A stretch of 64,000 bases of DNA, from the NCBI GenBank assembly GCA_043732705.1, contig JAYTHE010000002.1, forward strand, positions 191,608 to 255,607, read 5' to 3'. The position numbers and the translations under genes are program-made. Positions within the stretch are counted from its first letter, which is position 1. Each line of letters opens with the position of its first letter. Positions 4,597-62,988 of the stretch are shown here, piece after piece. The notes under the pieces are model-generated. The model saw only the letters and a program-made list of their open reading frames with translations, was not told the DNA's origin and made no database searches. This DNA comes from Candidatus Omnitrophota bacterium (GTDB taxonomy: Bacteria > Omnitrophota > Omnitrophia > Omnitrophales > Aquincolibacteriaceae).

Positions 4597-5450
4597 ACAA
4601 TAGTACCCGAGGCCCGAGGCCCGAGACCCGAGGGTTTCGGGAGCAGAACTTCTGGTTTGGGGCTTTGCTGGCATTATCAATATTGCTTTCTTCGAACTAT
4701 TCTGTTGCTGCCGCGCGCGTCGTTTCTTTAAACGCCTGTACCGATGAGCTTTTATTGCAGTTTGCTGAGCCGCAGCAAATCGCGGGTGTCACTCATCTTC
4801 TGCATTCACCGCAAAGCGAGGCTGTGCTTGACGATCATCCTGAAATTTTAAAATTATCCGGGGATGCCGAAAGAATTTATAAAATTCGTCCATCGATTGT
4901 TATTGCTGGCCCTTTTTCCAATCCCCAAACGCTTGAGCAGTTAAAACGAGCGCATATCAAGATTTTAATTTTTAGAGACCCGGGGAATTGGGAGGATTTA
5001 CTGCAAACGGTAAAATCTTTGGAGGAGATGCTCGGCACAACGCCGCAAATGGCGCTTTTCAGAAGAAATATTTTAAATTTAAACCTTCATGGCCCGGATT
5101 CTCAATGGGCCAGAAAGCGCGCGTTGTTCTGGAGCGCTGCCGGCCATGTTCCTGGCCGCGGCACATTTGAAAATACGATTCTTCAAACATTCGGAATGCG
5201 AAACGCGGTGAATTATGAAGGCTATGCTTTTCTTTCGCTTGAGAAGCTAATTCAGCTTCAGCCCGATATTATTATTGTGACTGAAGGCCCGAATCAAAGA
5301 AATTCCTGGAATCATGATACGCTTTTCCATCCCGCTTTGCGCGCGGCATTGCCGCATTTGGAATATATGCAAATTCCGGAAGAAGCAGTCAGTTGTGCTT
5401 CGGGTTATACCGTCGAAGTTTTAGAAAATCTTTTAAAGGGCAAGGCATGA
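4593..5450 (+). CDS. Periplasmic substrate-binding protein of an Fe-siderophore/cobalamin ABC transporter (BtuF/FecB family)
   Basis: RVVSLNACTDELLLQF ... IRPSIVIAG ... PDIIIVTEG pattern typical of class III SBPs. Its start overlaps the receptor stop (ATGA). Confidence 0.75.
   Translation: MNNSTRGPRPETRGFREQNFWFGALLALSILLSSNYSVAAARVVSLNACTDELLLQFAEPQQIAGVTHLLHSPQSEAVLDDHPEILKLSGDAERIYKIRPSIVIAGPFSNPQTLEQLKRAHIKILIFRDPGNWEDLLQTVKSLEEMLGTTPQMALFRRNILNLNLHGPDSQWARKRALFWSAAGHVPGRGTFENTILQTFGMRNAVNYEGYAFLSLEKLIQLQPDIIIVTEGPNQRNSWNHDTLFHPALRAALPHLEYMQIPEEAVSCASGYTVEVLENLLKGKA
4604..4641. repeat. Heptameric GTCTCSG-type tandem repeat, copy 1 (reverse orientation, in the btuF-like N-terminus)
   Basis: CCCGAGGCCCGAGGCCCGAGACCCGAGGG. 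Encodes RGPRPETRG. Confidence 0.8.
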
Positions 5451-6421
5451 AAAAAATCCATTGGATTTTAACCGCGGTTCTTGCGGCGTTATTTGTTGGC
5501 TCTCTTAATGCCGGAGCTTTGGATATTTCAATTTTTAAAGCCATGGCAGGTAAAGTTTCTGCGGCAGACGCTGCGATTTTTTGGCAAATCCGTTTTCCAA
5601 GGACTTTGCTTGCTTTGATGGTCGGTGTAACTTTGGGATTATCCGGTGCCGCGATGCAGGGTCTTTTAAGAAACCCTTTGGCTGATTCGGGCTTGCTCGG
5701 GATTTCCGGCGGCGCGGTACTTGGCGCAATGTTTGCGCTTTACTCAGGCATTACCGCCTGGGGAATTTGGCTTTTGCCCGCGGGCGGATTTTTAGGGGCG
5801 CTTGCGGCGGCAGCTTTAATTCTTCTTTTTTGCGTTCGGCGTACCGGTTTGCTTGGTTTAATTCTCGCCGGCACTGCCTTAAACACGCTTTTTTTCGCGC
5901 TGGGAAGTTTGCTGCTTAATTTTTCAAAAAATCCTTACGCAATTTTAGAAATTATTTATTGGCAAATGGGTTCCTTTGAAAACCGCACTGTGGAACAAGT
6001 GCTTGCCGCGGCGCCATGGATGATTTTAGGCTGGATTTTTCTTTTGCGAACGGCGCCTGCCCTGAGTCTTTTAACTTTGGGAGAGGATGTCGCGCGCACA
6101 TCGGGGGTTTCAATGCCAAAAACATTGCGTTTCGTTGTATTGGGTACGGCCTTTTCCGTGGGCGCCGCGGTTTCGATTTGCGGCAGCATCAGTTTTGTTG
6201 GACTTTTGATTCCGCATTTGATGCGCCCTTTCGTAAAACAGGAGCCGGGGCAATTGCTCTCCGTAAGTGCGTTAGCGGGCGGTATTTTTATTTTGCTCAC
6301 GGACTTAATCTGTCGCGCTGCCAGCTCCGGCGTGGAGTTAAAAATTGGGGTTTTAACCGCGCTTCTGGGAGCACCCTTTTTTATTTATTTGGCCTTTAAA
6401 ACACGGACACAAATTACATGA
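5447..6421 (+). CDS. FecCD-family ABC permease (BtuC-like)
   Basis: Ten or so TM helices and the FecCD signature region (TLGLSGAAMQGLLRNPLADSGLLGISGGA). ATG at 5447 overlaps the btuF-like stop. Confidence 0.85.
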   Translation: MKKIHWILTAVLAALFVGSLNAGALDISIFKAMAGKVSAADAAIFWQIRFPRTLLALMVGVTLGLSGAAMQGLLRNPLADSGLLGISGGAVLGAMFALYSGITAWGIWLLPAGGFLGALAAAALILLFCVRRTGLLGLILAGTALNTLFFALGSLLLNFSKNPYAILEIIYWQMGSFENRTVEQVLAAAPWMILGWIFLLRTAPALSLLTLGEDVARTSGVSMPKTLRFVVLGTAFSVGAAVSICGSISFVGLLIPHLMRPFVKQEPGQLLSVSALAGGIFILLTDLICRAASSGVELKIGVLTALLGAPFFIYLAFKTRTQIT

Positions 6422-7197
6422 GATTTTCACCATCCAGACCCTGTACACATCCGATGTGTACAAAGGTGCACATCGGATGTGTACAGGGGGTAAAGTTTGA
6501 AAACATATCCTGCAAGTTGGGCGGCCGGGAGATTTTGAAAAATCTTACCGGAGAAATTTTACACGGAAAAATAACAGCTTTACTTGGCCCCAATGGGTGC
6601 GGCAAATCAACCTTTTTGAAAGCCTTGCTTGGCTTGGTTGATTTACAAACGGGGGAAATATTTTTAGATCAGAAAAAAATAATGGGACTTTCTTCTCAGG
6701 CGTCGCTTTTGGGTTATATGCCGCAAAGCAAAGAGATTTATTGGCCATTGACCTGCGAAGCGATCACTATGCTTGGTACGGGCGGGCGAACCGAGGCAGA
6801 GATTAAGACTGTTTTCGAACGGCTTGGAATCATGTCTTTACGGGAAAAACAGATTGATCAGGTTTCGGGCGGCGAGCGGACATTAGTTTTATTAGCGCGT
6901 ATTTTAATAAGTAAACCGCAGGTGATTGTCGCAGATGAACCGATTTCTGAGCTCGATCCGGCTTATCAAATCAGAGTCATGAAAATCTTGCGTGAAGAAG
7001 CTCTGCGCGGTGCGATAGTTTTGGTAACGATGCATGATATTCATTTAACCCAGCGCTTTTGCGATGATGTCTTTTTGATGAAAGGCGGGGAAATTATTTG
7101 CGGAGGTTCCGCGTTTCATATATTGACCGAAAAGAATCTTCGGGAAACTTTCCAAATTTCATTTCGACCGGAAGTGGGGTTTTATGCCGAAGGATAA
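6418..7197 (+). CDS. ABC transporter ATP-binding protein (BtuD/FepC-like)
   Basis: Walker A GPNGCGKST, ABC signature LSGGERTLVLLARIL, Walker B VIVADEPISELD. The start is uncertain: ATG 6418 (ATGA-coupled), ATG 6454 or GTG 6466. Alignment to BtuD favours roughly 6466. All candidate starts lie in or next to a 20-bp perfect hairpin. Confidence 0.85.
   Translation: MRFSPSRPCTHPMCTKVHIGCVQGVKFENISCKLGGREILKNLTGEILHGKITALLGPNGCGKSTFLKALLGLVDLQTGEIFLDQKKIMGLSSQASLLGYMPQSKEIYWPLTCEAITMLGTGGRTEAEIKTVFERLGIMSLREKQIDQVSGGERTLVLLARILISKPQVIVADEPISELDPAYQIRVMKILREEALRGAIVLVTMHDIHLTQRFCDDVFLMKGGEIICGGSAFHILTEKNLRETFQISFRPEVGFYAEG
6439..6488. repeat. Perfect 20-bp inverted repeat with a 10-bp spacer at the btuC/btuD junction
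   Basis: CCCTGTACACATCCGATGTG-tacaaaggtg-CACATCGGATGTGTACAGGG. The arms are exact reverse complements. It contains the candidate btuD start codons at 6454 and 6466. Confidence 0.9.
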
Positions 7198-7750
7198 AGC
7201 TCCGCGCAAACATCAGAAGCCAAAACGTAAACCGGACAAAGGGCTGGTGATTGTTTATACCGGTAAAGGTAAAGGTAAAAGCACCGCTGCTTTTGGAACG
7301 GTTTTACGCGCGCTTGGTTACGGAATGAAAGTTGTGGTAATCCAATTTATTAAAGGGAATTGGCCTTCCGGAGAGGAAGCAGCATTAAAAAAGTTTGCTG
7401 AGTGCCGGTTTTTTAAAGTCGGCGAAGGATTTACGTGGGACACAAAAGATTTTGAACGGGATGCCGCGAAAGCCGCCCAAGGCTGGCTTTTGGCGCAGAA
7501 ATTTATTTTAGATTCTAAAATTGATTTAGTTGTGCTGGACGAAATTAATTGTTGTTTTGATTATGGGTTTTTAAAAATGGATCCGGTTCTTCAAATATTA
7601 AAAGAAAAGCCTTTGAAGAAGCATGTCATTCTTACGGGACGCGGCGCACCTAAGAAATTGATCCAGTTCGCGGATCTTGTAACAGAAATGAAATGTGTAA
7701 AGCATCCCTATGACCAGGGCATTTGGGCCCAGAAGGGCATTGATTTCTAG
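7184..7750 (+). CDS. cobO: Cob(I)alamin/cob(I)yrinic acid a,c-diamide adenosyltransferase (CobO/BtuR/CobA family)
   Basis: GLVIVYTGKGKGKSTAAFG P-loop, DLVVLDEIN, and a C-terminal HPYDQGIWAQKGIDF, all typical of CobA/BtuR. It overlaps the ATPase stop. Confidence 0.8.
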   Translation: MPKDKAPRKHQKPKRKPDKGLVIVYTGKGKGKSTAAFGTVLRALGYGMKVVVIQFIKGNWPSGEEAALKKFAECRFFKVGEGFTWDTKDFERDAAKAAQGWLLAQKFILDSKIDLVVLDEINCCFDYGFLKMDPVLQILKEKPLKKHVILTGRGAPKKLIQFADLVTEMKCVKHPYDQGIWAQKGIDF

Positions 7751-7756
7751 CTCATC

Positions 7757-7788
7757 TGTCATTCCCGCGAAGGCGGGAATCCAGGGCC
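7757..7788. repeat. Intergenic hairpin repeat, copy 1 (GTCATYCCCGCGMAGGCGGGRATCCAG)
   Basis: 8-bp stem ATTCCCGC / GCGGGAAT with a GAAG (GNRA) loop. The same 27-nt element recurs at 44331-44360 and 46601-46632. Confidence 0.8.
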
Positions 7789-7864
7789 TTTTTAGAAAAT
7801 GAAGCGATAGCAGTCTTCGGTCGTTGGTCCCTGCCTGCCCGTAGGCAGGTTTCGTCGAGTTGTC

Positions 7865-8077
7865 CTAAAGTTTATAGCGAATTTGGATTTGCGGCTTATC
7901 CCAATAAGGGCAATGACGGCAGCCCTGATTGCAGCAAAAGCCGCGGTCAATTAAATAAAATTCCGTATGCACAGTTTCCTGCGTAAAAGGATCTTCATAG
8001 GTCTTAAGCTTAGCCGCGCAGGCCGTTCGGTGAGCTTCCAAAGTTTCCGCGGGCAGGTTGGGATCGCGTGATGTCAT
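7865..8077 (-). CDS. Small cysteine-rich protein (C-terminal GFCCNQGCRHCPYW motif), hypothetical
   Basis: A 70-aa ORF with a clustered CCxxGCxHCPY motif suggesting metal or Fe-S binding. No family assigned. Confidence 0.35.
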   Translation of the reverse strand: MTSRDPNLPAETLEAHRTACAAKLKTYEDPFTQETVHTEFYLIDRGFCCNQGCRHCPYWDKPQIQIRYKL

Positions 8078-8098
8078 GCGCGCATTATAAATGAGGGT

Positions 8099-8180
8099 AC
8101 AAGTTATGAGCTATAACTTGTTTGACTCACTTTATCGTTTGTAGAAGCAGGCGAAGGAAGAGCGCACGCACCCTTCCTTC
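8099..8180. terminator. Two perfect stem-loops between the minus-strand Hsp20 gene and the small Cys-rich gene
   Basis: ACAAGTTAT-gagc-ATAACTTGT (8099-8121) and CGAAGGAAG-agcgcacgcacc-CTTCCTTCG (8150-8180). No clean U-tract follows either, so terminator function is unproven. Confidence 0.3.
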
Positions 8181-8188
8181 GTTAAATA

Positions 8189-8866
8189 TTAAGCGACGTT
8201 GATTTTCTTTGAAGCTTGTTCTTCGCTTACTTTGGGCAAAGTAATTGTCAGAACTCCATTCTGATAGTCTGCTTTTATATTGCCCTCATCAACGGGCCCC
8301 GGCAGTCTTAGACTACGAGAAAAAGATCCGTAGCTTCGTTCTTGGGTGTAATAGCTTCCGCTTTGTTCCTGGTTGATGCTTTCACGCATGCCTTGAATGG
8401 TGAGGATTTCTCCGCGAACGGTGATTTCAATTTTATCTTTATTCAGGCCGGGAATATCCACGCGCACGATGTAAGAATTGTTCTTTTCTTCCATGTCTAC
8501 TGAAGGCATGGAATCAATGCCCATATGTTGATTCATTTGAGTCATCATGCCCGGAAGGCCTGCCATGAACCCACCCATCATGTGCCCCATATCTTCCTGC
8601 ATTTGATCAAAGGCGGACCACGGGTCTTGATAAGTATTGGCAGAAAGGGGCTGGTGCTTTTGTCTCAATGCGTTTGAAAAAGTACTTTTTGGATAAGCTG
8701 TTGGCGCATTTTTAAAATGAAAGAGCTGAGCAAACTCTTTCTTTGAGTCGGATTCCTTTTTATTGAGCCAATAAAAAAAAGCACCTGTTTGTGTGATAAG
8801 TAACAGGGCTAATAAGATGCTTAGAATAGCGAGCCAATTTATTTTTTTATCATATGTTTCAGTCAT
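8189..8866 (-). CDS. Hsp20/alpha-crystallin small heat-shock protein with an N-terminal membrane-anchor extension
   Basis: C-terminal alpha-crystallin domain (YIVRVDIPGLNKDKIEITVRGEILTIQG ... GVLTITLPK). The N-terminus carries a hydrophobic helix (WLAILSILLALLLI). Start chosen at the ATG (8866) preceded by GGGAGG. The tracked ORF extends to 8917. Confidence 0.8.
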   Translation of the reverse strand: MTETYDKKINWLAILSILLALLLITQTGAFFYWLNKKESDSKKEFAQLFHFKNAPTAYPKSTFSNALRQKHQPLSANTYQDPWSAFDQMQEDMGHMMGGFMAGLPGMMTQMNQHMGIDSMPSVDMEEKNNSYIVRVDIPGLNKDKIEITVRGEILTIQGMRESINQEQSGSYYTQERSYGSFSRSLRLPGPVDEGNIKADYQNGVLTITLPKVSEEQASKKINVA

Positions 8867-8932
8867 GGCCGGTTCCTCCCTTAAGAACACCGTGAGAAAG
8901 CGACTATGCTTCCTCACGGTATTTCGACGAAA

Positions 8933-9382
8933 TTAATTCACCTGAACTTCAATTTTTTTTGTCTTTTCCTTGGCCGTTTTGGGAAGCGACACTTCCAAGA
9001 CGCCATTCTTATAGCTGGCTTTGACTTTTTCGGCATCAATTTCAGCCGACAAGGCAAAGGCTCGCGCGAAACTTCCGTAGCGGCGTTCGGAATAGTGATA
9101 ACCTTTCTTTTCTTCGTTGGTTTCCTCTTTGCGTTCACCGCGCAAGATGAAGCGATTACCTTCGACGGTAATATCGAAGTCTTCACGTTTCATCCCGGGT
9201 AGATCCGCATGGACAACATACTCTTGGTCTTTTTCCGTAACTTCCACTTGTGGGGTAAGCCCGGAATCCCAATTTTTTGAGGTGAGCGGTGCTGCCGCAA
9301 AGAAACGGTCTAGGTCCGTTTGGAAATCCTTTAAAACTTCAAAAGGGTCAAAGGTGTCTTTTCTGCGTTGAATAATATTCAT
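8933..9382 (-). CDS. Hsp20/alpha-crystallin small heat-shock protein
   Basis: EYVVHADLPGMKREDFDITVEGNRFILRGER ... GVLEVSLPK. A strong RBS (AAAGGGAGGAAACT) precedes the ATG. It sits in tandem, probably in an operon, with the downstream Hsp20. Confidence 0.85.
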   Translation of the reverse strand: MNIIQRRKDTFDPFEVLKDFQTDLDRFFAAAPLTSKNWDSGLTPQVEVTEKDQEYVVHADLPGMKREDFDITVEGNRFILRGERKEETNEEKKGYHYSERRYGSFARAFALSAEIDAEKVKASYKNGVLEVSLPKTAKEKTKKIEVQVN

Positions 9383-9550
9383 AGTTTCCTCCCTTTAATT
9401 TAGAATAGCTCTGAACAAAGAGATTCAATTCGCGTGCCAATTTCCCTGAGAGGGGAAAGAGGCCGGCGTGTTTTTGGAGTGTAAAAAAATGTCACAGAAT
9501 GATTCAATTTTTCACACGATAATGACTATTTAGCAAAGCGATCAATTAAT

Positions 9551-10120
9551 ATGGAAAAGACAGAAAGGCTTTTTTTAGGGCTGCATCTTGACGCGCTTTT
9601 TCAGAAGCAAGTCGCTGATTTTTCAAAAAAACTGCATGTTCTTTACCCTGACCAAAAGTGGGTCAAGCTTCGCCACTTTCATTTTACGATTCATTTTTTG
9701 GGTGATACGACTGAGGAACAAAAGGAAAAAATTAGAGTTATCGCGAAGGGAGTGGCGGCAGACACAAAGTCTTTTCCCATCGCGCTTGAGGGTATGGGCG
9801 CTTTTCCGAGTTTGATAAAGCCCCGCGTCATTTGGATTGGCGCCGCAGAGGAGTGTAAGAAAAGTCTCTTTGATCTTTATACGCATGTGACACTGCCGCT
9901 TATTGCGAAAGGTTTTCCCGTAGAGCATGAAACATTTACGCCGCATGCCACGCTTTTCCGCGTTCGAGCCGAAAAACCGATTGTCTGGGATACAAACATT
10001 TTCAGTTTTACTAAGACGGAGCCGCGCTTAATTAGCGGGCTCAGTCTTTTTAAGAGTATTCTCGGCACCGATGGTTCGGAATATCAGCCTATAGAAGCGT
10101 TCCCATTTAGAGCGACGTAA
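9551..10120 (+). CDS. thpR: RNA 2',3'-cyclic phosphodiesterase (ThpR/LigT, 2H phosphoesterase)
   Basis: Two H-x-T/S-x motifs (HFTIHFLG and HATLFRV) at the expected spacing for the 2H family. Protein length is about 189 aa. Confidence 0.75.
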   Translation: MEKTERLFLGLHLDALFQKQVADFSKKLHVLYPDQKWVKLRHFHFTIHFLGDTTEEQKEKIRVIAKGVAADTKSFPIALEGMGAFPSLIKPRVIWIGAAEECKKSLFDLYTHVTLPLIAKGFPVEHETFTPHATLFRVRAEKPIVWDTNIFSFTKTEPRLISGLSLFKSILGTDGSEYQPIEAFPFRAT

Positions 10121-10312
10121 AGTTTTCTACCCCCGAGGTTGATGAAGGTCAGCCTTGGGGGTGGGCATAGCGGTTCTTTGAATGCTATAATTTAAATGAA
10201 GCCGCAAGTTGCTAAGCAAAGCAACTTGCATGGCTGAATTTACACCGGGCGGCGTTTCGCCAAGAAGTCCCGGTGCTTAGATGTAAACTGCGAAGCGGTT
10301 TTCCGAGGTGAT

Positions 10313-10585
10313 ATGAGCGAACACGATCCTTTTAATGGCGAAGAAATTAAGTTTCCGGTGGTGTGTCATTTTAAAATCATTGCCGATAATATGCCGGGCG
10401 TGCGCGTCATGCTTGAAAAGAAACTCCAGGACTTAGGCGTGATTAATCCGCTTTCCGAAGGAACCCATTCTTCGGGTAATAAATACGTGACCTACAATAT
10501 TGAAGTCAAAGTCGCGAGTAAAGAATATATGCATCAGCTTGACACAGCAATTCGATCCACTAAGCATGTTCGAATGGTGCTTTAA
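10313..10585 (+). CDS. YbeD-like protein (DUF493/UPF0250)
   Basis: A 90-aa protein. FPVVCHFKIIADNM and the C-terminal HVRMVL resemble E. coli YbeD (FPTPFTYKVMG ... IVRMVL). Confidence 0.55.
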   Translation: MSEHDPFNGEEIKFPVVCHFKIIADNMPGVRVMLEKKLQDLGVINPLSEGTHSSGNKYVTYNIEVKVASKEYMHQLDTAIRSTKHVRMVL

Positions 10586-10599
10586 AGGTGTTTTAAAAT

Positions 10600-11425: not shown

Positions 11426-11441
11426 CCTCGCTTTTAAGAGC

Positions 11442-12668: not shown

Positions 12669-12837
12669 AATAAAATCCCCTGTAAACTTTAAAATAATGC
12701 CGATATAAAAGAAGATGGATTATAGCTAAAGGCTTGGGTCTAACCAGCTTATTTTAAATGACTTGAAGCATTTAATTAAAAAAGATTGATATAGAAAGCT
12801 ATATATGTCAAAATATAACTAATTATAGTAATTAATA

Positions 12838-27359: not shown

Positions 27360-30300
27360 ATGAAAAAACAATCTTCTTTTTTCCGTCGTTTAGTAAGCTT
27401 AGTTACGACACTATTGATTTCTTTTTCAGGAACTCCCGGTTTCTCGGCACCTTCTAGCTCGGATTCTGTCGTGCTTTCTGCGCACGCTTTTTCAAGTTCT
27501 TTAGCTAGTGAAATATTACAAATTCCGCGTCAATTGGGGCGTGTGGAATCTTTTCATGCGGGCAAAGGCAAAACGTTGATTCATATTCAAACCGCGCATG
27601 GCCATTATGAGGCGCAGAAAAAAATCGCCGCAATTTTGCAGGATCTTGAAAATCAATATGGAACAACCACCGTTTTTATTGAAGGCAGCTGGGGGAAACT
27701 TTATCCTGAGATTTTGCGATTTTTCCCTGAAAATCCAAAACTGACGCATGAGTTGAATGACGCCCTCACACATAAGGCGATTGTTAAAGGCGAAGAGCTT
27801 TATTTGATTGATTCGAAAAAAGGTGAAGGCTATGGAATCGAGAATGAACAGGCCTATCTTGAAAACGCAGCGGCATTTGCAAGCGTGGTTAAGGCGCGTG
27901 AAGGCAGTCGGAAATTTTTAACCGCTGCCATGGATGGCATTGAAAAAATTTCAGCCGGTTATTTGAATAATGATTTGCGTGGTTTTTTGCGGCGTGAGGA
28001 GAGCTTTCAAAATGGTGTTACTCCGCTTGATTCTTGGATTGAAGAATTACATAAACAGGTTACAAAGCAGTATGGTCAAGATTTGGCCGACGCTGCCTTT
28101 CAGTTGGAATGGCCCATGCTCGTACGCTATTTTACGATCAAAAAACTTGAATCCTCGATGAATGTTGAAACGCTTGATTCAGAACGGGTTAGTTTTTTAA
28201 AAGAGTTTGATAAAGTCTCTAGTCTCCGGTCTCCAGTCTCCGGTCTCAAGGATTCAATAGAATCCTTGCTGAGCGCCAAAGACGCTAGCCTGGGGTTACA
28301 AGCCGAAATGGTGCAAAGCATTTTTATCCAAATGATGCGAGCCTTGCCCCAGGATTTTGATTACAGTCGCTATCCCAATGTGAAGGCAATGATCGGCATT
28401 TTACTTTTACAAAGTGAGCTTGATGCGCACCTGATGACCGCGGAAATAGAGAAATTAACAAATCTTCTTGCCGGAAAAATGGCAACGCAGGCGACTGAGA
28501 AGCAATTTTTATCGGTTTATCAACGTAAAATTTTGCTTACGAAATTACTTAATTTAGAATTAGCGCCTGATGATTACGAGAAAATTCTCGGGTCTCCGGC
28601 CTCCGGCCTCCGGCCCAGTCATTTATTTTTAGAAATTCAGAAATTAAATACCGAAAACCGTGTCCGTGGAATTGAATTTAAGCATACGGCCGAGTTAGAT
28701 GCGATTTATGAGAAGGCGTTGGCTTTTTATGCGGGTGCGAAAAAGCGTGATCAATATTTAATTGAGAATGTTGAGAAACAAATGGATCAGCTGGGGGTTG
28801 ACAAAGCAGTTGTGATTACGGGTGGTTTCCATGCTGAGCCGTTCCGCAAATACTTTGAAGCGAAAAATTACACTTATGCGCTTCTGATGCCGACTCTTTC
28901 AAGTGTTGATGATAAAGGTCGTGAGGCTTATTTGAATGTTATGAATGAGCAGCTAAAGATTAAAACAAAAACATCTACCGCTAATACAATATCGCCTGCA
29001 ACGCGGGCTGGTGTCTCAACTTTGGAGGCTGGATTAGCTTCTTTGAGTTCGGAGGATGGCAATTTAGCCCTTGCAGGTGTGGAGCGATCAGAATCCCGTC
29101 TTCTATCACTGAGAGCTAAAGCATCGACTTATATTGCGGCTGTATTGTTTGCGTTGTCTTCGGCGTCTCCTGTTTCTGCACAAACACGACGAGTGCTTCC
29201 CGTTGTTCCTTCTGACGCTACAGCGCAACAAGCGGCGTTTGATAAATATATGGAGACAGCTGATGATGGAAAACTAGCCGCGTCGTTTGCCTCTTTTGTG
29301 GAGAAAAAAAATGCCCCTGCTTATTTATTATTTTCATATGCCAAAGCTGCCGCAAAGCAAGGTCGACAAGAAACGGTCGTTAGGCAGCTCGGATTAATAA
29401 TCCAATATTTAGTTGACGCGTATCAATTTAATGAAGCTGATCTTAGAAAAGTTTTAGAGGCGCTTGATTCTAATCCTGAGATCCGTCAAAACAGCGGGGT
29501 GGTTGCTGCTGTTAAATCAATAACGTCACTTGTACCTAAAGAGCTTGTTGGATCGTCGGAGCAGAAGAAAGAAAAACCAGTTGCTTCTGTGATAATAAGG
29601 GCAGAAGGAGGCAAGGGTTTAATTTTAGGACCATCTGAGACGGTTACTGAAAAATCAACAGGTGAAGAAATTAAACTTACCGGAATTCAAAAAGGATCTC
29701 CCGAGGAACTGCTTTTCAATCAGTTTTTTAATGGCGGTGACGTTGTGCAGCCGGGTGGAGTCAATCCAAAGGATGCTTCAAGGGTAAAATTTTCATTACA
29801 GGCATTGGCTCAAATTCACGAGCTTGCACCAGAAAAAAGAGTCCAATTTGTCAAGTCAATGTTCGACTTGTTACCCGCCATGAAGCCGGCATTACCAAAT
29901 GAGAAGGAATTCAAAGAAATAAAAAGAATCACACTAAGTGAATTGGCGAACACTTTTTACTTATTTAAGTTCCCGCCGTCGGCAATTAGTTTTTTTTTAA
30001 ATGAATTGGTCGCCCCCAAAAATAGTTCTCTTGTTGCGGATCCTTTTTTCAGGCCTTATGTATTAGCTTTAGTTTCGGAGTTGGTTGATCAATTGTCCAT
30101 GGACTTACTCGAGTATAAGAAGTGGGCTCAGTCTGTCCTTATAAAAGAATATGAGGTGTTTATCGCCAAATTTGCTGATGATGCGATCCGCAAGGTTTTA
30201 GTAGCGCCTGAGGAAGCGTTAGGTCCCGACACGCGAATGTGGTATATGCGTATGACAGGCGTTCTGTTGAGTGCGCCTAACTTTATTGATCCATTTGTTA

Positions 30301-31451
30301 AGGTCGCACCGCTTGCGCCATCCGTCGGTGGAGGGGACCGAAAATATATTGAGAATAGTAAGGCAGTGGATAGATTTTCACAAATGGTACCTACATCTAG
30401 GCTAAGAAGCTTTATTCTAAATTACTTTGTACTGCAATTCCAAGATAAGGATCTATTGAAAAAAATTTCAAAACGGACAGATCCACGAAAATTCATGCCA
30501 CTTACAACAATAATTAATGCTTTTGTTGTAACTCAGGATCCGAAAGTACTTCAAGAAATGGAAAAAATTTCGACAATCGTAGATTTGCCCGAAAGTTTGC
30601 GAACGGTTGTTGTAGCTAAAATTGTAGAGTTGAAGTTTGGAATTTCACAAAAAAAGGCGAAGGAGAAACGATCTGAGATGCGGGATGCAGTTGCAGATGA
30701 TTTTTTGCTGCCGCAAGGCCCCACGATTGATGTGGCGACGTTGAAACGAATGGCAGAAACATTTAAAGCCGGAATTTATTCCTTGGCGGCGAAGGTAGTT
30801 GCAGGGATGGGTTTTCAGCCTAAGTCACTGATTCTTCCGACCGTAGATTCTATCTTACCGCTTCCGCAAGATGTGTCGAGTTTAGGAGGAAATGTTGTTT
30901 CTATTTTTACGCCTGATAATGCAAAAGCAGAAGCTAAGATCGTCATCGCGCAAAAATTTTCAGCTTTCCCCGAGGCAACATCTGATTTTAAGCAGCTTCT
31001 TTCTTGGGCAAGATATATAGCTAGCCACAAAGGGTTGGTTTGGAGCTTTCAGGTTACACAGTCGCAGGAAGCTTCCGCGAGGAGCTTTCGTCAGATGTTT
31101 TTGCAGCTAGCAAGTCAGAATGGATTGCAAATTTCGCAAAATCAAATTTTTTTGGAACGTGTTCCTGCAGGTGTTTTTAATTTGTCTAAATTTGCCAAGC
31201 TAGACCTCGCCGCGATTGCCCCGGATGCAGCTGTCCTGAGCCCTTTAAATGTGGGCATTAAAGGGCGTGTTATTTTGACAGCAGCTGACGGCATCGATGG
31301 TCTTGCTGCCGGCTTGATCGTTACAGCAGAAGCTTTACTGTCGCCTCTAGGATTTCCTCAAAAGGTGGTTCGTGCAAGTGAGCTGCACCCTTTTGGTTTG
31401 GACTATCAAGCAGTTCTTATGGCCGTAGCTGCGTTTGCAAGAGCTGCATAA
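27360..31451 (+). CDS. Giant secreted protein (1363 aa), function unknown
   Basis: Signal peptide (MKKQSSFFRRLVSLVTTLLISFSGTPGFSA). One uninterrupted ORF with a Rho-independent terminator after it. Two in-frame heptameric repeat blocks. A second hydrophobic segment at about aa 570. Weak GTxH/GxFH resemblance to the TraB/GumN/Tiki fold in the N-terminal 500 aa. Confidence 0.7.
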   Translation: MKKQSSFFRRLVSLVTTLLISFSGTPGFSAPSSSDSVVLSAHAFSSSLASEILQIPRQLGRVESFHAGKGKTLIHIQTAHGHYEAQKKIAAILQDLENQYGTTTVFIEGSWGKLYPEILRFFPENPKLTHELNDALTHKAIVKGEELYLIDSKKGEGYGIENEQAYLENAAAFASVVKAREGSRKFLTAAMDGIEKISAGYLNNDLRGFLRREESFQNGVTPLDSWIEELHKQVTKQYGQDLADAAFQLEWPMLVRYFTIKKLESSMNVETLDSERVSFLKEFDKVSSLRSPVSGLKDSIESLLSAKDASLGLQAEMVQSIFIQMMRALPQDFDYSRYPNVKAMIGILLLQSELDAHLMTAEIEKLTNLLAGKMATQATEKQFLSVYQRKILLTKLLNLELAPDDYEKILGSPASGLRPSHLFLEIQKLNTENRVRGIEFKHTAELDAIYEKALAFYAGAKKRDQYLIENVEKQMDQLGVDKAVVITGGFHAEPFRKYFEAKNYTYALLMPTLSSVDDKGREAYLNVMNEQLKIKTKTSTANTISPATRAGVSTLEAGLASLSSEDGNLALAGVERSESRLLSLRAKASTYIAAVLFALSSASPVSAQTRRVLPVVPSDATAQQAAFDKYMETADDGKLAASFASFVEKKNAPAYLLFSYAKAAAKQGRQETVVRQLGLIIQYLVDAYQFNEADLRKVLEALDSNPEIRQNSGVVAAVKSITSLVPKELVGSSEQKKEKPVASVIIRAEGGKGLILGPSETVTEKSTGEEIKLTGIQKGSPEELLFNQFFNGGDVVQPGGVNPKDASRVKFSLQALAQIHELAPEKRVQFVKSMFDLLPAMKPALPNEKEFKEIKRITLSELANTFYLFKFPPSAISFFLNELVAPKNSSLVADPFFRPYVLALVSELVDQLSMDLLEYKKWAQSVLIKEYEVFIAKFADDAIRKVLVAPEEALGPDTRMWYMRMTGVLLSAPNFIDPFVKVAPLAPSVGGGDRKYIENSKAVDRFSQMVPTSRLRSFILNYFVLQFQDKDLLKKISKRTDPRKFMPLTTIINAFVVTQDPKVLQEMEKISTIVDLPESLRTVVVAKIVELKFGISQKKAKEKRSEMRDAVADDFLLPQGPTIDVATLKRMAETFKAGIYSLAAKVVAGMGFQPKSLILPTVDSILPLPQDVSSLGGNVVSIFTPDNAKAEAKIVIAQKFSAFPEATSDFKQLLSWARYIASHKGLVWSFQVTQSQEASARSFRQMFLQLASQNGLQISQNQIFLERVPAGVFNLSKFAKLDLAAIAPDAAVLSPLNVGIKGRVILTAADGIDGLAAGLIVTAEALLSPLGFPQKVVRASELHPFGLDYQAVLMAVAAFARAA
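28215..28247. repeat. Heptameric tandem repeat, copy 2 (in the giant ORF)
   Basis: GTCTCTAGTCTCCGGTCTCCAGTCTCCGGTCTC. Encodes SLRSPVSGL. Confidence 0.8.
28588..28615. repeat. Heptameric tandem repeat, copy 3 (in the giant ORF)
   Basis: CTCGGGTCTCCGGCCTCCGGCCTCCGGCCC. Encodes GSPASGLRP. Confidence 0.8.
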
Positions 31452-51846: not shown

Positions 51847-51896
51847 GCTCTGAGCAAAAGTTCAATCGTATTTTTTGAGGATCGAGAGCAGTATTT

Positions 51897-55171: not shown

Positions 55172-55625
55172 TCCAGCTGTAAGCCGTAAACTGTGGTTTT
55201 TCACGGGCGCGTTATTTTTTGTCTTTGGCTTAAATGCGTATGCTGCCGGAGCCGGATCGGTTTGTTTTAAAGAGACTTGCTTTCATCCCGAGATCGCACG
55301 CACCCAAGCTGAGAAACAGCATGGGCTGATGGGGCGGACGGCTTTGGCTGCGGACGAAGGCATGCTTTTTGTTTATGAGAAGGAGGTTGTTCCCGTATTT
55401 TGGATGAAAAATATGCGGATACCTCTCGATTTTGTTTGGTTAGATCGTCAAGGAAAGACAGTTGATCTTCATGAAGCGGTTTCGGCTTGCGGGCCGGGAG
55501 ATTGTCCGACGATTGCGAGTCGCAGCCCAGTTCAATATGTTTTGGAAGTTTCTGCGGGCGCAATTCAAAAAAGCGGAATTAAAATAGGCGACCCCGCCGC
55601 GATTAAATTGGGAGCAACAAATTGA
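55140..55625 (+). CDS. DUF192-family protein (COG1430)
   Basis: QHGLMGRTALAADEGMLFVYEKEVVPVFWMKNMRIPLDFVWLD is the DUF192 core. Confidence 0.65.
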   Translation: MIKLLKRSICDPAVSRKLWFFTGALFFVFGLNAYAAGAGSVCFKETCFHPEIARTQAEKQHGLMGRTALAADEGMLFVYEKEVVPVFWMKNMRIPLDFVWLDRQGKTVDLHEAVSACGPGDCPTIASRSPVQYVLEVSAGAIQKSGIKIGDPAAIKLGATN

Positions 55626-56311
55626 AGACAAGAGATTTTAAGCCGCTTTTAATGGCAATCGTTTTTGCTTTGTTTTGTCTCGGGTCTCCGGTCTCGGGTC
55701 TCCGGTCTGCTTGGGCGGACGATTGGCTTGACGGTGCGAATGGTTACGCGCGCGGAAGCGAGCAGGCAAAATTAAGCGGCAAGCCGATGATGGTTTATTT
55801 TTATACGGATTGGTGCCCGTACTGCCGCAAGTTTGAAAAACACACGCTCTCGAACCCCGATGTTCAAAAAGCATTGTCTGCTTTCATAAAAGTCCGCATT
55901 AATCCGGAAAAAGGAACGCGCGAAAATCAACTGGGCGACCAATATCGAATCGAAGGCTTCCCGTCGGTTTATTTTGAAAATCCGGCCTCCGGTCAGGCGA
56001 CGCAGGAAATGACACGTGCCTTAAAAAGCGCGAAAGACTTTATTAACGCGGCGAATGAGTTTTCAAAAGTCACGCATCCTGCGAAGCTTGAAAAGGCCGC
56101 GGCTCCGGCAGCTGCGGTTGTGCCCGTCCAGCCCGCATCTGTTCTTCCGGCGGTGACCAACGAACAAACGCTTTACTTAAAAAGCGGCCGTACAATTGAC
56201 GGTAAAGTTGTTTCCGAGGACAGCAAGGGGATTACCTTTGCTACTTCGGAGCTGGGCAAGGTTTATTTTTCGCGCGGTGAAATTTTAAAAATTGAAAAAG
56301 AAAAACAATGA
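55622..56311 (+). CDS. Thioredoxin-fold protein (secreted, WCxxC)
   Basis: Signal peptide, then MMVYFYTDWCPYCRKFEK. The heptameric repeat is embedded right after the signal-peptide h-region. Confidence 0.65.
   Translation: MKTRDFKPLLMAIVFALFCLGSPVSGLRSAWADDWLDGANGYARGSEQAKLSGKPMMVYFYTDWCPYCRKFEKHTLSNPDVQKALSAFIKVRINPEKGTRENQLGDQYRIEGFPSVYFENPASGQATQEMTRALKSAKDFINAANEFSKVTHPAKLEKAAAPAAAVVPVQPASVLPAVTNEQTLYLKSGRTIDGKVVSEDSKGITFATSELGKVYFSRGEILKIEKEKQ
55676..55710. repeat. Heptameric tandem repeat, copy 4 (in the thioredoxin-fold gene)
   Basis: TGTCTCGGGTCTCCGGTCTCGGGTCTCCGGTCTGC. Encodes GSPVSGLRS. Confidence 0.8.
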
Positions 56312-57087: not shown

Positions 57088-57120
57088 CAGCGTACCATTT
57101 ACACGTTATAATTCCGCCCT

Positions 57121-57396: not shown

Positions 57397-58010
57397 ATAT
57401 GTCTTCAGAAAACAAAAACATTCTTTGCTGTCTTGATTTGGAAGGCGTTTTAATCCCTGAAATGTGGATCAGTGTCGCCAAGAAAACACGGATTAAAGCG
57501 CTTGAAATCACAACCCGCGAAGAACCCGATTACGATAAGCTGATGCGCTTCCGTTTAGGCGTGATGAAGAAACATGGAATCAAGCTCGCCGCTGTTCAAA
57601 AAGTAATCGCTCAAATGCGCCCGCTGCCCGGCGCCAAAACTTTTCTCGATAAACTGCGTTCAAAGTATCAGGTGATTATTCTTTCGGATACTTTTTTTGA
57701 ATTTGCCCAGCCCCTCATGAAGCAGCTTGGCTGGCCGGTGATTTTTTGTCATACACTTTCCGTGGATTCAAAAGGTTTTATTTCCGCATATCATTTGCGT
57801 CAAAAAGATCAAAAATGCAAAGCCGTTAAAGCTTTGCAGAATTTGAATTTTTATGTCCAGGCGGCGGGTGATTCTTACAATGATTTGACTATGCTGACTT
57901 CTGCGGACAAAGGTGTTTTATTCCGGACGACTGATAAAATTAAAAAAGAATATCCCAAACTTCCCGCGGTTGAGACCTACGCACAGCTTCTCAAGCAGTT
58001 TAACGCGTAA
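57390..58010 (+). CDS. thrH: Phosphoserine phosphatase / homoserine phosphotransferase (ThrH-like HAD hydrolase)
   Basis: ILCCLDLEGVLIPEMWISVAKKTRI ... TTREEPDYDKLMRFRL ... VIILSDTFFEFAQPLMKQLG ... AAGDSYNDLTML is near-colinear with Pseudomonas ThrH. Confidence 0.8.
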   Translation: MLNMSSENKNILCCLDLEGVLIPEMWISVAKKTRIKALEITTREEPDYDKLMRFRLGVMKKHGIKLAAVQKVIAQMRPLPGAKTFLDKLRSKYQVIILSDTFFEFAQPLMKQLGWPVIFCHTLSVDSKGFISAYHLRQKDQKCKAVKALQNLNFYVQAAGDSYNDLTMLTSADKGVLFRTTDKIKKEYPKLPAVETYAQLLKQFNA

Positions 58011-58608
58011 GTTAAAGCAATTATTGGTTTGCGATCATAAAAAGAATTGGATCGGGCTCAAACAACCAGTGCTTCGCCTGGAACTCGCCCGACCCAACTT
58101 TTTTTATAATCGATCTTCGCTAATGTAGGGTGAGGCAAGAATCGGAGAAACAAGGTTTCGGATTCCAAGGCGATTGAAATGCAGCCTTGGGTTTTTCTGC
58201 ATTATCCCTCAAGGCAAATAAAGTCGTTTCCCGTCATGTCTTTTTCCATTTCGGAGAATCCGAAACGGAAAAACGAATTATTGCAATTCCATTTTTTTAT
58301 AAAAATCGATTTTCTTGGTGCGGCTTGCAGAACCAAGAAAAAATGTGATGGAAACTAGTTTGCAGAGATTGAGGAAGGGAGTGGTAAATACTAATTAAAG
58401 CGTCTTCGATGGATTGATATTTACCGCTTTGTTTCTCCGCTTATTGCCCACCACCTCTTCGACGTGAAGGGCATGAAAAAGTAAATTGAAATGCGAGTTC
58501 CACAGCCGAAGGCGAGGACTGTTTGAGCAGGTCAATTTACTTTTATATGACTCAACCCAAGTTTTATTTGCAGTAAAAAATGAATTCAGATTTTTAAACT
58601 ATTTTGAA

Positions 58609-60056
<1,448 letters not shown>

Positions 60057-60275
60057 AACGTCCTTTTCTCAAGGATAAGAGCTTAATAGCCCCGTTCTCC
60101 TTAAGGTAGGCGGCTATTGTATGGAGAAAGAGGGTATTTTCAATGAATAAAAAGCAGGCCTTTGCTGTCTAAATTGTGAGTTTGATGTTTTATTTAGATT
60201 TTACTTGGGATGACTTGTTAGTTTTTAGTATAATTTCAAAATTCCGAAGGCCTTTTCAACTAGGAGTTCGATGTC

Positions 60276-60941
60276 ATGAAAATCCGCGTACTTGTTTTTA
60301 TACTTTTTATGAGCGCTTTAATTTCTTCCGCGTATGCAGCCGAGTATGAGCTTGATTCCGCACACACGGCCGTAACCTTTAAAATCCGCCATTTACTTTC
60401 TAACGTAAACGGAACATTTGACAAGTTTGAAGGGAAGTTTTCTTATACCCCGGATAAACCCGAAGAGTGGAAGGTGGAAGCAAAGATTCAGGCGGACAGC
60501 GTCAACACCCGCAATGAGCAGCGTGACAATCATTTGAAGTCAGCTGATTTTTTTGATGCGATCCACTACCCTGAAATTACTTTTAAAAGTACAAAAGTAA
60601 CAGATTATAAAAAAGGTCACGCTAAACTGCATGGACTGTTGAATATGCATGGCGTTGAAAAAGAAGTGGTCATGGACTTGGAAGTTTTAGGTCTGGAAAA
60701 GGATCCTTGGGGCAATGAGCTTGCCGGTTTCAGCGCAACAACAAAGCTCAACCGTAAAGATTATGGGCTTGTTTGGAATCAGCTGGCCGAGTCAGGTAAG
60801 CTGCTTGTGGGCGAAGAAGTTCAAATTACGATTGATGTGGAAGGTAAAACGATTACTTCCCAGGCTCCTGCAGAAATGGCGGCGTCCGATGCCGCAGAAA
60901 AAGTTCCCGATGATGTTACAACAGAAAAAAAACCTTCTTAA
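60276..60941 (+). CDS. YceI-family periplasmic protein
   Basis: Signal peptide, then YELDSAHTAVTFKIRHLLSNVNGTF ... is the YceI N-terminal signature. Confidence 0.8.
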   Translation: MKIRVLVFILFMSALISSAYAAEYELDSAHTAVTFKIRHLLSNVNGTFDKFEGKFSYTPDKPEEWKVEAKIQADSVNTRNEQRDNHLKSADFFDAIHYPEITFKSTKVTDYKKGHAKLHGLLNMHGVEKEVVMDLEVLGLEKDPWGNELAGFSATTKLNRKDYGLVWNQLAESGKLLVGEEVQITIDVEGKTITSQAPAEMAASDAAEKVPDDVTTEKKPS

Positions 60942-60962
60942 AAATAACCAAAGGAAAATAAA

Positions 60963-61223
60963 ATGAAAACGCAAAATAAAAAGTTTGTAGTTGCTGCGAT
61001 TGCCGGTTTGATGGCGGTTGCGGGTTCTCTTTCCGTTCAGGCGATCGCGCAGGCCGAAGATGTGCATTGCTACGGTGTTAACAAATGCAAGGGTACGGGC
61101 GATTGCGGCGGAAAAGGTACGAGCTGCGCCGGGACAAATTCTTGCAAGGGTCAGGGTTGGGTTACGATGGCTAAAGATGCTTGTCTGAAAATGGATGGCG
61201 GATCATTAGAAGCCAAAGCCTAA
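60963..61223 (+). CDS. Bufferin-like RiPP precursor (DUF2282, six-Cys family) with a Sec signal peptide
   Basis: An 86-aa protein. Signal peptide, then HCYGVNKCKGTGDCGGKGTSCAGTNSCKGQGW ... DACLKMDGG, giving six Cys in the spacing of DUF2282/BufA-type precursors. It lies immediately upstream of an MNIO gene. Confidence 0.6.
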   Translation: MKTQNKKFVVAAIAGLMAVAGSLSVQAIAQAEDVHCYGVNKCKGTGDCGGKGTSCAGTNSCKGQGWVTMAKDACLKMDGGSLEAKA

Positions 61224-61314
61224 GCAAAGCACTCGAGAGATGTAAAAGGAGGGAGTTTATGCTCCCTCCTTTTTTATTTTCACCTAAAATCGATACCAAA
61301 GTTAAAATAGTCGC

Positions 61315-62988
61315 ATGTTAATTCAACCGCGCAATAATTTAGGGCATGGTGTGGGGCTGCGCTCCGAGCATTTCAATGAAATTCTTGAAACCAAACCCAA
61401 GGTTGATTGGTTTGAAGCTATTTCTGAAAACTTTATGGATACGGAAGGGCGCCCTCTCCATATTTTAGAAAAAATTCGCGCGGATTATCCGGTGGTACTG
61501 CACGGAACCTCTTTATCGATCGGTTCCGCGGGCGGTCTGAGCGCTGTTTATTTGGAAAAACTCAAAAAATTAGCTGACCGAATTCAGCCGGCAATGGTAT
61601 CAGACCATTTATGCTGGGCTGATCATGGCGGTAAACGTCTTTTTGATTTGCTGCCGCTGCCTTTCACTGAAGAATCATTGAAGCTCGTTGTTAGGCACGT
61701 TGATCAATTGCAAAGTTTTTTAGGTCGCCGTATTTTGCTTGAAAATGTTTCCGCCTATATTGCTTTTAAACATTCTGAAATGACGGAATGGGATTTTCTT
61801 GACCAGGTCGCGAAGCGAAGCGGCTGCGGTATTTTGCTCGATGTGAATAATATTTATGTGAATAGTTTTAATCACGGCTTCGACCCGCTTGAATATTTGA
61901 ACGGCATATCACCCGAACACGTTTTTCAATATCACATCTCCGGCCATACTGATAAAGGCAAATTTCTTTTCGATACGCATGTCGGTGAGATAATTGATCC
62001 GGTCTGGCAGCTATATGCGACCGCCGTCCGGCGGTTCGGTGACATTTCATCGCTGATTGAATGGGATTCCGAAATCGGCAGCTTGGATCAATTAATTGAA
62101 TTGAATGAAAAAAGCAGAGCCATTGCGAAACAATCTCAGACCGGAGATCGGAGACCGGAGGCCGGAGGGCTAAGAGCTTCCAGCCCTCGTGTCTCGGGTC
62201 TAGGGCCTAAACTTGATCATGTTCAATCCATGTTTGCCTCAGAAATATTGAAGAAATCAAAAACGGCTTTAGCTGAGCTGTTAGAAAAACAGGCCGGTGA
62301 TCCGGGAATTGAACGTGTTGAGGTTTATGCGGAAGGTTATCCGGCGCGCATCCGCGATGCCCTGCTCGAATGTTATCCCGCGATCCATAAAGTTTTAGGC
62401 GAGGGTGTTTTTACGGAGCTGGCGCTTGAATTTGCGGGCTCGCGCAGTTTTGATCATTATAATTTGAGCCGTGCCGCGGATCACTTTCCCGTTTTTTTAC
62501 AGATGAGTTCCCGCAACGAAGAGTTTCCTTTTCTGAGAGATTTGGCGCAGCTTGAAAAATCCGTTCAACGGTCCTTTCATGCCGAAATAAAAGCTTCCGC
62601 GACCGGCGTGGATTTTGCGGAGAAAGCCGCCAGTGACGGTGAAAATGTGGTTTTTCAATTTCAGCCGCATGTTTTTGCCGTGCGTTCATTTTGGCCGATT
62701 CTTGATATTTGGAATGCGCGCAATCTTCCTCCTGATCAAATTAAGATTCAAGTTGAAGGCCGCGCCCAGGCTGTTTTGATTTACCGCCGCGGCGAACAGG
62801 TTGTCTGCCAAAAAGCAGAGGCGCTGGAGGCCGCTATTTTGCAAAGTTTGATGGATGGTAATCCGCTGGGAAAAGCTTTTGATGTGATGACGGAAGCTGA
62901 TGATATGACCCCCGTTCAAGGTTGGTTTTCAAGTTGGCTTGCTAATGGGCTGATTGCTAGCTTTGAGCAGATAGCAGATAGCAAATAG
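61315..62988 (+). CDS. MNIO enzyme (DUF692) fused to its DUF2063 partner (BufB-BufC-like fusion)
   Basis: The N-terminal 270 aa (GHGVGLRSEHFNEIL ... VDWFEAISENFMD ... YPVVLHGTSLSIG ... LLENVSAYI) are the DUF692/MbnB-like TIM-barrel signature. The C-terminal 280 aa have DUF2063-like character. The linker (QTGDRRPEAGGLRASSPRVSGLGPKL) is encoded by the dispersed heptameric repeat. Confidence 0.6.
   Translation: MLIQPRNNLGHGVGLRSEHFNEILETKPKVDWFEAISENFMDTEGRPLHILEKIRADYPVVLHGTSLSIGSAGGLSAVYLEKLKKLADRIQPAMVSDHLCWADHGGKRLFDLLPLPFTEESLKLVVRHVDQLQSFLGRRILLENVSAYIAFKHSEMTEWDFLDQVAKRSGCGILLDVNNIYVNSFNHGFDPLEYLNGISPEHVFQYHISGHTDKGKFLFDTHVGEIIDPVWQLYATAVRRFGDISSLIEWDSEIGSLDQLIELNEKSRAIAKQSQTGDRRPEAGGLRASSPRVSGLGPKLDHVQSMFASEILKKSKTALAELLEKQAGDPGIERVEVYAEGYPARIRDALLECYPAIHKVLGEGVFTELALEFAGSRSFDHYNLSRAADHFPVFLQMSSRNEEFPFLRDLAQLEKSVQRSFHAEIKASATGVDFAEKAASDGENVVFQFQPHVFAVRSFWPILDIWNARNLPPDQIKIQVEGRAQAVLIYRRGEQVVCQKAEALEAAILQSLMDGNPLGKAFDVMTEADDMTPVQGWFSSWLANGLIASFEQIADSK
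62137..62207. repeat. Composite inverted copy of the heptameric repeat forming the MNIO-DUF2063 linker
   Basis: GACCGGAGATCGGAGACCGGAGGCCGGAGGG-ctaagagcttccagccctcg-TGTCTCGGGTCTAGGGCC. The two halves are in opposite orientations around a GAGGGCT/AGCCCTC hairpin. Confidence 0.75.

Follow-up and report, generated by a model that had tools for sequence, protein, structure and literature searches.

Heptanucleotides are the most abundant class of long simple sequence repeats (SSRs) in many prokaryotes, according to the summary of Mrazek, Guo and Shah (2007) given in PMC4679880, and such repeats are presented there and in PMC4692102 as dispersed, genome-specific families. As these two accounts outline the class, it consists of tandem 7-nt units with a preference for period 7, its richness is specific to the genome, and slippage is its proposed origin. 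The TAACTGA repeats of marine Beggiatoaceae, some cyanobacteria and Bacteroidetes (MacGregor 2015, PMC4679880) represent a favoured heptamer that occurs in sets of 2-6 copies at many loci, with related heptamers only rarely repeated and with a sporadic phylogenetic distribution; they contain stop codons in the forward direction and are mostly intergenic, just upstream of start codons. The GGGAATC and GGGGA(T/C)T repeats of Xanthomonas and Nostoc (Rehm et al. 2015, PMC4692102), and the STRR repeats of Calothrix and Nostoc, are dispersed arrays of about four units that vary extensively in length and sequence among close relatives and occasionally form convergent inverted pairs. Here we describe a heptanucleotide family of this general class in a 64-kb stretch of DNA (G+C about 43%) from a Candidatus Omnitrophota bacterium (contig JAYTHE010000002.1 of assembly GCA_043732705.1), referred to below as the window. 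It differs from the described families in that all of its arrays lie inside open reading frames (ORFs) and in frame; its unit, GYCTCSG, is free of stop codons in six frames, unlike TAACTGA, and is without the G-tracts of the GGGAATC-type repeats. A literature search for the repeat sequence itself found no paper.

Repeated DNA inserted in frame in genes is also represented by the Rickettsia palindromic elements, each of them a discrete element about 100-150 bp long whose sequence is conserved and which is clearly either present or absent. The arrays in the window resemble them in being tolerated in frame and in having a partial capacity to form hairpins, but their copies share the 7-nt unit only and are without element boundaries. 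The contingency loci of Haemophilus, Neisseria and Campylobacter (PMC2651432, PMC11868660) are alike in that their repeats are intragenic and their unit is not a multiple of three. On the evidence set out below, we consider it probable that the window arrays are a lineage-specific heptanucleotide SSR family, remodelled by slippage in weakly constrained segments and most likely near-neutral.

Heptanucleotide arrays in the window

The unit G[T/C]CTC[C/G]G forms six arrays of 3-5 units each at five sites in the window, where about 0.01-0.2 would be expected by chance (Table 1). A preliminary description of this DNA had claimed GTCTCSG-type arrays at five coding sites; the arrays are present, at coordinates correct to within a few bases, and all are in ORFs. 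Tandem Repeats Finder returned period-7 arrays with 3.1-4.9 copies and 85-100% matches at the five sites. A two-unit probe, GTCTCCGGTCTCCG, allowed up to two mismatches, had 13 matches in the window against 0.18 expected from shuffles, and a degenerate two-unit pattern had three matches against 0.01 expected. When the whole window was scanned by lag, counting arrays of at least four copies at 85% or more, five arrays were found at period 7, two at period 6 and none at periods 5 and 8-12, and all five period-7 arrays were members of the G[T/C]CTC[C/G]G family. The period-7 repeats in the window are thus real, far above chance and specific to this period. They consist of head-to-tail 7-nt units in at least three copies, with one unit family at several loci in excess of chance and of other periods, as is characteristic of dispersed heptanucleotide SSRs. 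Their density is 7.8 per 100 kb. An unselected control of 621 kb, made up of 80 metagenome contigs encoding MNIO homologues and scored identically, had a density of 0.64 per 100 kb, about 12-fold lower, and three of the four control arrays were in the MNIO linker.

Alignment of the six array copies together with their flanks showed only the 7-nt unit to be held in common, the ends being ragged and decayed and the centres clean, as expected for slippage-driven repeats. All six arrays are inside long ORFs whose reading frame is uninterrupted through each, and they are found in segments that tolerate change: the n-region of one signal peptide and the c-region of another, two variable loops and the linker between two domains. 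This location is not an enrichment, because ORFs make up about 90% of the window and random placement would put six of six arrays in ORFs with a probability of about 0.5; an enrichment of arrays in coding sequence was accordingly rejected. The notable point is instead the lack of the intergenic bias reported for the TAACTGA (PMC4679880) and GGGAATC (PMC4692102) repeats. Intergenic predominance is a habit of the TAACTGA, GGGAATC and STRR families and not part of the definition of the class, and it is not seen in the window.

The absence of stop codons from the GYCTCSG unit was considered as a strong filter and rejected, since 50% of all heptamers are stop-free in six frames. Repetition of GTCTCCG in any frame gives a cyclic permutation of VSGLRSP, and the opposite strand gives RRPETGD. 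The preliminary description had drawn attention to an S-P-V/A-S-G-L-R-like peptide at four sites. Similar peptides do occur there, but they are not independent observations: three 7-nt units make 21 nt, and the shared SPVSGLR-like peptide follows automatically from the period. Its further proposal, that conservation is at the level of DNA, is borne out, given that site 1 is inverted and codes for another peptide and that orthologues keep the 7-nt period and change the peptide. Selection for the peptide itself, for example as a sorting or cleavage motif with the DNA repeat incidental, can be given hardly any credence. It would fit the likeness among the four sites, but it cannot yield a 7-nt period in DNA, and the different peptides coded at the same sites in orthologues refute the peptide as the selected feature.

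Table 1. Arrays of the window, their host genes, and inverted array pairs in related genomes
Feature	Position (strand)	Units or fold	Tandem Repeats Finder, period 7	Product, or peptide and setting	Orthologous position
Site 1	4604..4641 (-)	about 4 units; + strand CCCGAGG CCCGAGG CCCGAGA CCCGAGG, then a decayed unit	4606-4633, CCCGAGG x4.0	TRGPRPETRG; signal-peptide n-region of BtuF-like protein	window CCCGAGG; relative A CCACGAR
Site 2	28214..28250 (+)	about 5 units: AGTCTCT AGTCTCC GGTCTCC AGTCTCC GGTCTCA	28214-28247, x4.9	VSSLRSPVSGLK; variable region of 1363-aa protein	window GTCTCCR; relative A, the window's array with point changes; P0003 genome AGTCKTY
Site 3	28585..28616 (+)	about 4 units: TTCTCGG GTCTCCG GCCTCCG GCCTCCG GCCC	28594-28615, x3.1	LGSPASGLRP; variable-length loop of 1363-aa protein	window GYCTCCG; relative A (GACCAAC)x5; P0003 genome (AGCGGNC)x8
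Site 4	55677..55710 (+)	4.6 units: (GTCTCGG GTCTCCG)x2 plus GTCTGC	55677-55708, x4.6; equally a perfect 14-mer x2.3	LGSPVSGLRS; late h-region and c-region of signal peptide of thioredoxin-like protein	window GTCTCSG; relative A GTCTCYT x5; relative B GGTCTNT x5 with inverted AAAGACN partner
Site 5a	62138..62170 (-)	left arm of inverted pair; + strand AGACCGG AGATCGG AGACCGG AGGCCGG AGGGC	62138-62167, x4.3	TGDRRPEAGG; MNIO-DUF2063 linker	window inverted pair; relative A GAGCCAC x4; relative B GGCCCGA x3 facing ATCTCCG-type units
Site 5b	62184..62207 (+)	right arm, weaker and decayed: CCCTCGT GTCTCGG GTCTAGG GCC		PRVSGLG	
Seventh period-7 array, other unit	62964..62994 (+)	(AGCAGAT)x3.4			
Host of site 1	4593..5450 (+)			periplasmic binding protein, Peripla_BP_2, BtuF-like	
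Host of sites 2 and 3	27360..31451 (+)			1363-aa protein with N-terminal signal-like sequence, without Pfam match	
Host of site 4	55622..56311 (+)			exported thioredoxin-like protein	
Host of site 5 and of AGCAGAT array	61315..62988 (+)			fused MNIO (MbnB/TglH/ChrH) and DUF2063; maturase of ribosomally synthesised and post-translationally modified peptides	
Inverted pair, relative A	L128, 10005-10125	-60.2 kcal/mol, z = -7.1		BtuF-like gene, 5' end	
Inverted pair, relative B	L126, 4650-4765	z = -4.7		thioredoxin-like gene, 5' end	
Inverted pair, P0150 genome	L129, 10020-10115	z = -4.3		BtuF-like gene, 5' end	
Inverted pair, P0154 organism	L254, 10009-10100 (L255, L256 alike)	30-bp perfect stem, z = -9.3		BtuF-like gene, 5' end	

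Arrays at orthologous positions in related genomes

The window was compared with DNA of five related genomes. These were relative A (GCA_043718225.1 and Logan SRR22198336, loci L122, L124 and L128; protein identity 57-80%), relative B (GCA_964562525.1, locus L126; protein identity about 69%), and the genomes encoding the proteins P0003 (L123), P0150 (L129) and P0154 (L254-L256). For each of the five window sites, one or more of these genomes carry a period-7 array at the orthologous position. The units are related at sites 2 and 4, where the G[T/C]CTC[C/G]G-type family is kept across genomes, and unrelated at sites 1 and 3 and, in relative A, at site 5. Copy number and sequence therefore vary between relatives at one locus, as they do in SSR families. 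All arrays seen, in the window and in the five other genomes, are in frame. A further array, of GTCTCCG units, lies at the N-terminus of the MNIO protein in relative B and has no counterpart in the window. No arrays occur in the genome that encodes P0042 (L127, 64% identity, not syntenic).

The preliminary description had considered that the arrays could be insertions, recognisable by alignment of orthologous genes. The alignments show no net insertion at sites 3 and 5, where relatives hold period-7 arrays of their own. The site 3 loop of the window has the same length as that of distant homologues and is shorter than in relatives; the MNIO-DUF2063 linker is hypervariable in all 32 aligned homologues and is not longer in the window. 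The segments containing sites 3 and 5 are hypervariable across all homologues. The seventh period-7 array, (AGCAGAT)x3.4, codes for the C-terminal seven residues of the MNIO-DUF2063 protein (EQIADSK) and for its stop codon, and at the 3' end of the same gene relative A has ATAGCNN-type heptamers in an inverted arrangement (L124, about 10252-10320).

Four-fold degenerate sites have an identity of 0.34-0.53 between these genomes, which is near saturation, and an array that had been kept unchanged since the common ancestor should already have lost its periodicity. Neighbouring units within one array are nevertheless 0.73-0.85 identical in the window and in relative A. Orthologous arrays, when optimally aligned, reach no more than 0.48-0.57 at site 1, at site 3 and, for relative A, at site 5. 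High identity between units alongside near-saturated four-fold sites means that the arrays are younger than the split of these genomes, have been re-formed, or have been homogenised. This points to arrays that are dynamic in situ, through turnover or homogenisation.

Arrays also occupy a spacer in relatives A (TAGTCTT) and B (TTGTTCT), immediately before a conserved TATAAT...CCGCC ATG and an ORF of 91-94 aa (L124, 4144-4206; L126, 6107-6159). The equivalent spacer of the window, at 57088-57120, is short and has no array.

Inverted pairs and hairpins

Site 5 is the only inverted pair in the window. The composite inverted pair that had been described at 62137-62207 does exist, and its two 20-nt arms show 80% complementarity. 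The fold of 62128-62215 has -35.8 kcal/mol and z = -1.9, a modest gain over shuffles. A strong hairpin at site 5 was rejected on this basis, and the folds at sites 1 and 4 are likewise weak. At 28247-28268, CAAGGATTC and GAATCCTTG pair without mismatch over 9 bp around a 4-nt loop, and this stem directly adjoins the 3' end of the site 2 array.

Inverted pairs of arrays in relatives fold far better than shuffles (Table 1). In the P0154 organism (GAACCAA)4 faces (TTGGTTC)4.5, and both arms contain one variant unit in mirrored form (GAACTAA and TTAGTTC). The A/C-rich arm codes for the charged n-region (cyclic EPRTKNQ) and the complementary arm for the hydrophobic h-region (cyclic LVLGSWF), such that inverted array pairs code for both the n- and the h-region of Sec-type signal peptides. 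This was seen in the relatives and not in the window. One such array-encoded signal peptide is predicted to be MRRQNQELRTKNQVSFLRIIFCLGSWFLVLGSFSAHG, and the N-termini of many BtuF-like homologues carry array signatures of this kind at the protein level.

Heptanucleotide arrays in other prokaryotes

A scan of one genome per species with a 3.5-unit pattern found at least 120 loci in many phyla. The scanned loci, 879 kb in all, contain 246 period-7 arrays compared with 3-76 for other periods, and many of these arrays have other units. In the low-G+C genomes among them the arrays are mostly in short open stretches, and are therefore probably intergenic. Viral contigs gave 12, 24 and 8 matches for three permuted control units and 7 for the real unit. 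A special, horizontally spread unit was rejected for this reason, permuted units being as frequent or commoner, and no special horizontally spread element is needed. Heptamer arrays are thus a general feature of prokaryotes; the GTCTCSG unit is not special, and the clade studied here is rich in arrays. The loci L033 (619-2592), L058 (229-439) and L008 (1803-2229) comprise an Acidobacteriota locus with GGGAATC arrays, the Xanthomonas-type unit, and Bacteroidales loci whose arrays are composite, one heptamer giving way to another from end to end.

Host genes and their surroundings

The start of the BtuF-like ORF overlaps the stop codon of a gene for a TonB-dependent receptor, and a gap of 508 nt (1881-2388) lies upstream of the operon that they form. 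Orthologous operons of relatives have genes for a FecCD permease, an ABC ATPase and CobA/BtuR. No cobalamin riboswitch was found at the Rfam gathering score anywhere in the window, the Rfam search of the window gave no family at gathering score, and there are no tRNAs in the window. The 1363-aa protein has a conserved N-terminal region of about 520 aa (window 27360-28950) that is common to proteins of 900-2300 aa, mostly from Omnitrophota; it contains the motifs HIQTAHGxYEAQ and TGGFHAxPF, matches no Pfam family, and is apparently a domain not yet described. The DNA from 60963 to 62988 is a bufferin-type locus, in which YceI and a BufA1-like precursor are followed by the single ORF for the MNIO-DUF2063 fusion. 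Both Pfam domains are present in all of the best 120 MNIO-DUF2063 homologues listed, and the named ones are mostly Omnitrophota, as are those of the 1363-aa protein. More generally, where homologues of the window proteins at 55-70% identity have a name, it is mostly that of Candidatus Omnitrophota or Omnitrophica, which by itself makes membership of this phylum probable. Every 4-kb bin of the window shows a positive GC skew and nearly all long ORFs are on the + strand, which is consistent with a single replichore whose genes are co-oriented with replication.

At site 4, a Logan contig (L001, from SRR23617244) with 8322 bases identical to the window starts at 55679, two bases into the array. 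This suggests a branch of the assembly graph at the repeat.

Discussion

The kin of the window arrays are the cyanobacterial STRR, the Beggiatoaceae TAACTGA and the Xanthomonas and Nostoc GGGAATC repeats, and it is the coding location that is unusual here. STRR repeats are predominantly intergenic. We infer that heptanucleotide arrays of this sort arise, and are then repeatedly remodelled in place, by slipped-strand mispairing in the 7-nt register, with intrastrand template switching probably contributing to the inverted pairs. The comparisons show arrays to be kept only where length and sequence are weakly constrained, that is, in the n-, h- and c-regions of signal peptides, variable loops, an interdomain linker and a C-terminal tail, and in relatives also in short intergenic spacers. 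As a stop-free 7-nt unit reads as one cyclic heptapeptide in every frame, either orientation fits an ORF provided that the downstream frame is kept. The arrays would then most likely be neutral or nearly neutral fillers that give variation in length and sequence, and not a dedicated switch. Ectopic conversion between arrays, or a mutational bias specific to the unit, are candidate reasons why one unit is shared across several sites of one genome.

Several points weigh against a near-neutral family shaped by slippage. Local slippage alone leaves unaccounted for the six arrays that share one unit family within 64 kb. At sites where the unit of the window is CCSGAGR, that preferred by relative A is CCACGAR, and some trans-acting homogenisation or bias seems to be required. 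Slips of one unit would shift the frame of the host genes, and turnover would have to occur within intact ORFs, for which three-unit steps, compensated indels and conversion without change of length are candidate routes. Periodicity that is held at fixed positions over a long divergence could also reflect selection at the nucleic-acid level. The arrays of the P0154 organism are 100% identical in three assemblies made from different samples; these assemblies are uninformative on population variation and show none. The densities of period-7 arrays in relative A (7.3 per 100 kb) and relative B (9.2 per 100 kb) are inflated by ascertainment, as these loci were fetched as orthologous to array sites. 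A tentative alternative, with a small chance of being correct, is that the 7-nt arrays of this Omnitrophota clade, together with inverted copies of them, are continually rewritten at fixed permissive positions and directly supply working coding sequence, with the periodicity or an mRNA hairpin being maintained. In a Sec signal peptide, the charged n-region would come from an A/C-rich arm and the hydrophobic h-region from the reverse complement of that arm, as where (GAACCAA)n would read EPRTKNQ and (TTGGTTC)n would read LVLGSWF, and further arrays would provide interdomain linkers and C-terminal tails. Selection or a trans-acting homogenising process would maintain the periodicity or hairpin, and the homogeniser would give each genome its preferred unit.

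A further idea, which we hold to be rather unlikely, is that the arrays are cis-acting nucleic-acid elements under selection, either as tandem 7-nt binding sites for a protein that binds single strands, for example a cold-shock-domain protein, or as arms of mRNA hairpins that would tune translation initiation, domain-wise folding or termination. It accords with the retention of periodicity at fixed positions as sequence changes, with the location of arrays directly upstream of the conserved TATAAT in relatives A and B, and with inverted pairs in relatives that fold at z = -4.3 to -9.3, one of which has the variant unit mirrored in both arms. CspB of Bacillus subtilis prefers the heptamer GTCTTTG/T (PMC1904285), which GTCT-type units (GTCTCCG, GTCTCTT and TAGTCTT) may be said to resemble, as a lead from the literature. 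Unrelated units at one site argue against a sequence-specific binder, however, and mirrored variants are expected from template-switch inverted duplication in the absence of selection. Four of the six window arrays lack an inverted partner, the folds computed for the window are weak (z = -0.9, -1.9 and -2.4), and no Rfam family matches there. Phase variation, in which slippage by one unit shifts the frame and toggles the host gene within a population, as at contingency loci, had been proposed in the preliminary description and seems to us unlikely. As in contingency loci, the arrays are inside ORFs and have a unit length that is not divisible by three; they are unstable on long time scales, changing over evolutionary time; and the large secreted host protein adjoins a polysaccharide and glycosyltransferase cluster, as seen for its orthologue. 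The start of L001 within the site 4 array would fit a longer allele, and equally well a longer array built from this unit at some other place in the sample. Documented phase-variation switches have longer, near-perfect tracts, lie mostly near the 5' ends of surface or restriction-modification genes, and exist as ON and OFF alleles. The window arrays, in contrast, have 3-5 units, most with mismatches, and are not the long, near-perfect hypermutable tracts of such loci; the best tract is the 14-mer of site 4 at x2.3 only. Apart from the large secreted protein, the arrays are hosted by a B12-type binding protein, a thioredoxin-like protein and a peptide maturase, every array in the window and the five other genomes is in frame, and the P0154 assemblies do not differ at their arrays.

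Footprints of a tiny palindromic mobile element had also been suggested, and we consider such an element, inserted in frame like the Rickettsia palindromic elements or miniature inverted-repeat transposable elements (MITEs), very improbable. It would explain one unit at six places in 64 kb, the inverted pair at site 5, the long perfect inverted pairs of relatives (a 30-bp stem at z = -9.3 in L254, and z = -7.1 in L128) and the presence of the unit in many phyla. This last is no sign of spread, in view of the permuted units that are as common in viral contigs. The six aligned copies with their flanks have no conserved termini, no target-site duplication and no common length, so that neither the terminal inverted repeats and constant length, nor the target-site duplication, nor the clean presence or absence of MITEs and Rickettsia-like elements is found. 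There is no net insertion at sites 3 and 5 relative to homologues, and the unrelated units at orthologous positions would need independent hits at the same few nucleotides, which is implausible. The claim of a mobile-element footprint is not upheld by copies that share the unit only and have ragged ends.

Significance

These arrays have practical consequences, in that they can break assemblies, as at site 4, and the low-complexity segments that they code for may mislead annotators. What is new is a heptamer family that lives in frame inside genes, the persistence of its arrays at orthologous positions while the unit is replaced, which implies turnover or homogenisation faster than the divergence of species, and, in relatives, inverted array pairs that code for an entire signal peptide together with a very stable mRNA hairpin. 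The system allows one to ask how 7-nt repeats form and homogenise, and whether simple repeats create functional protein segments de novo.

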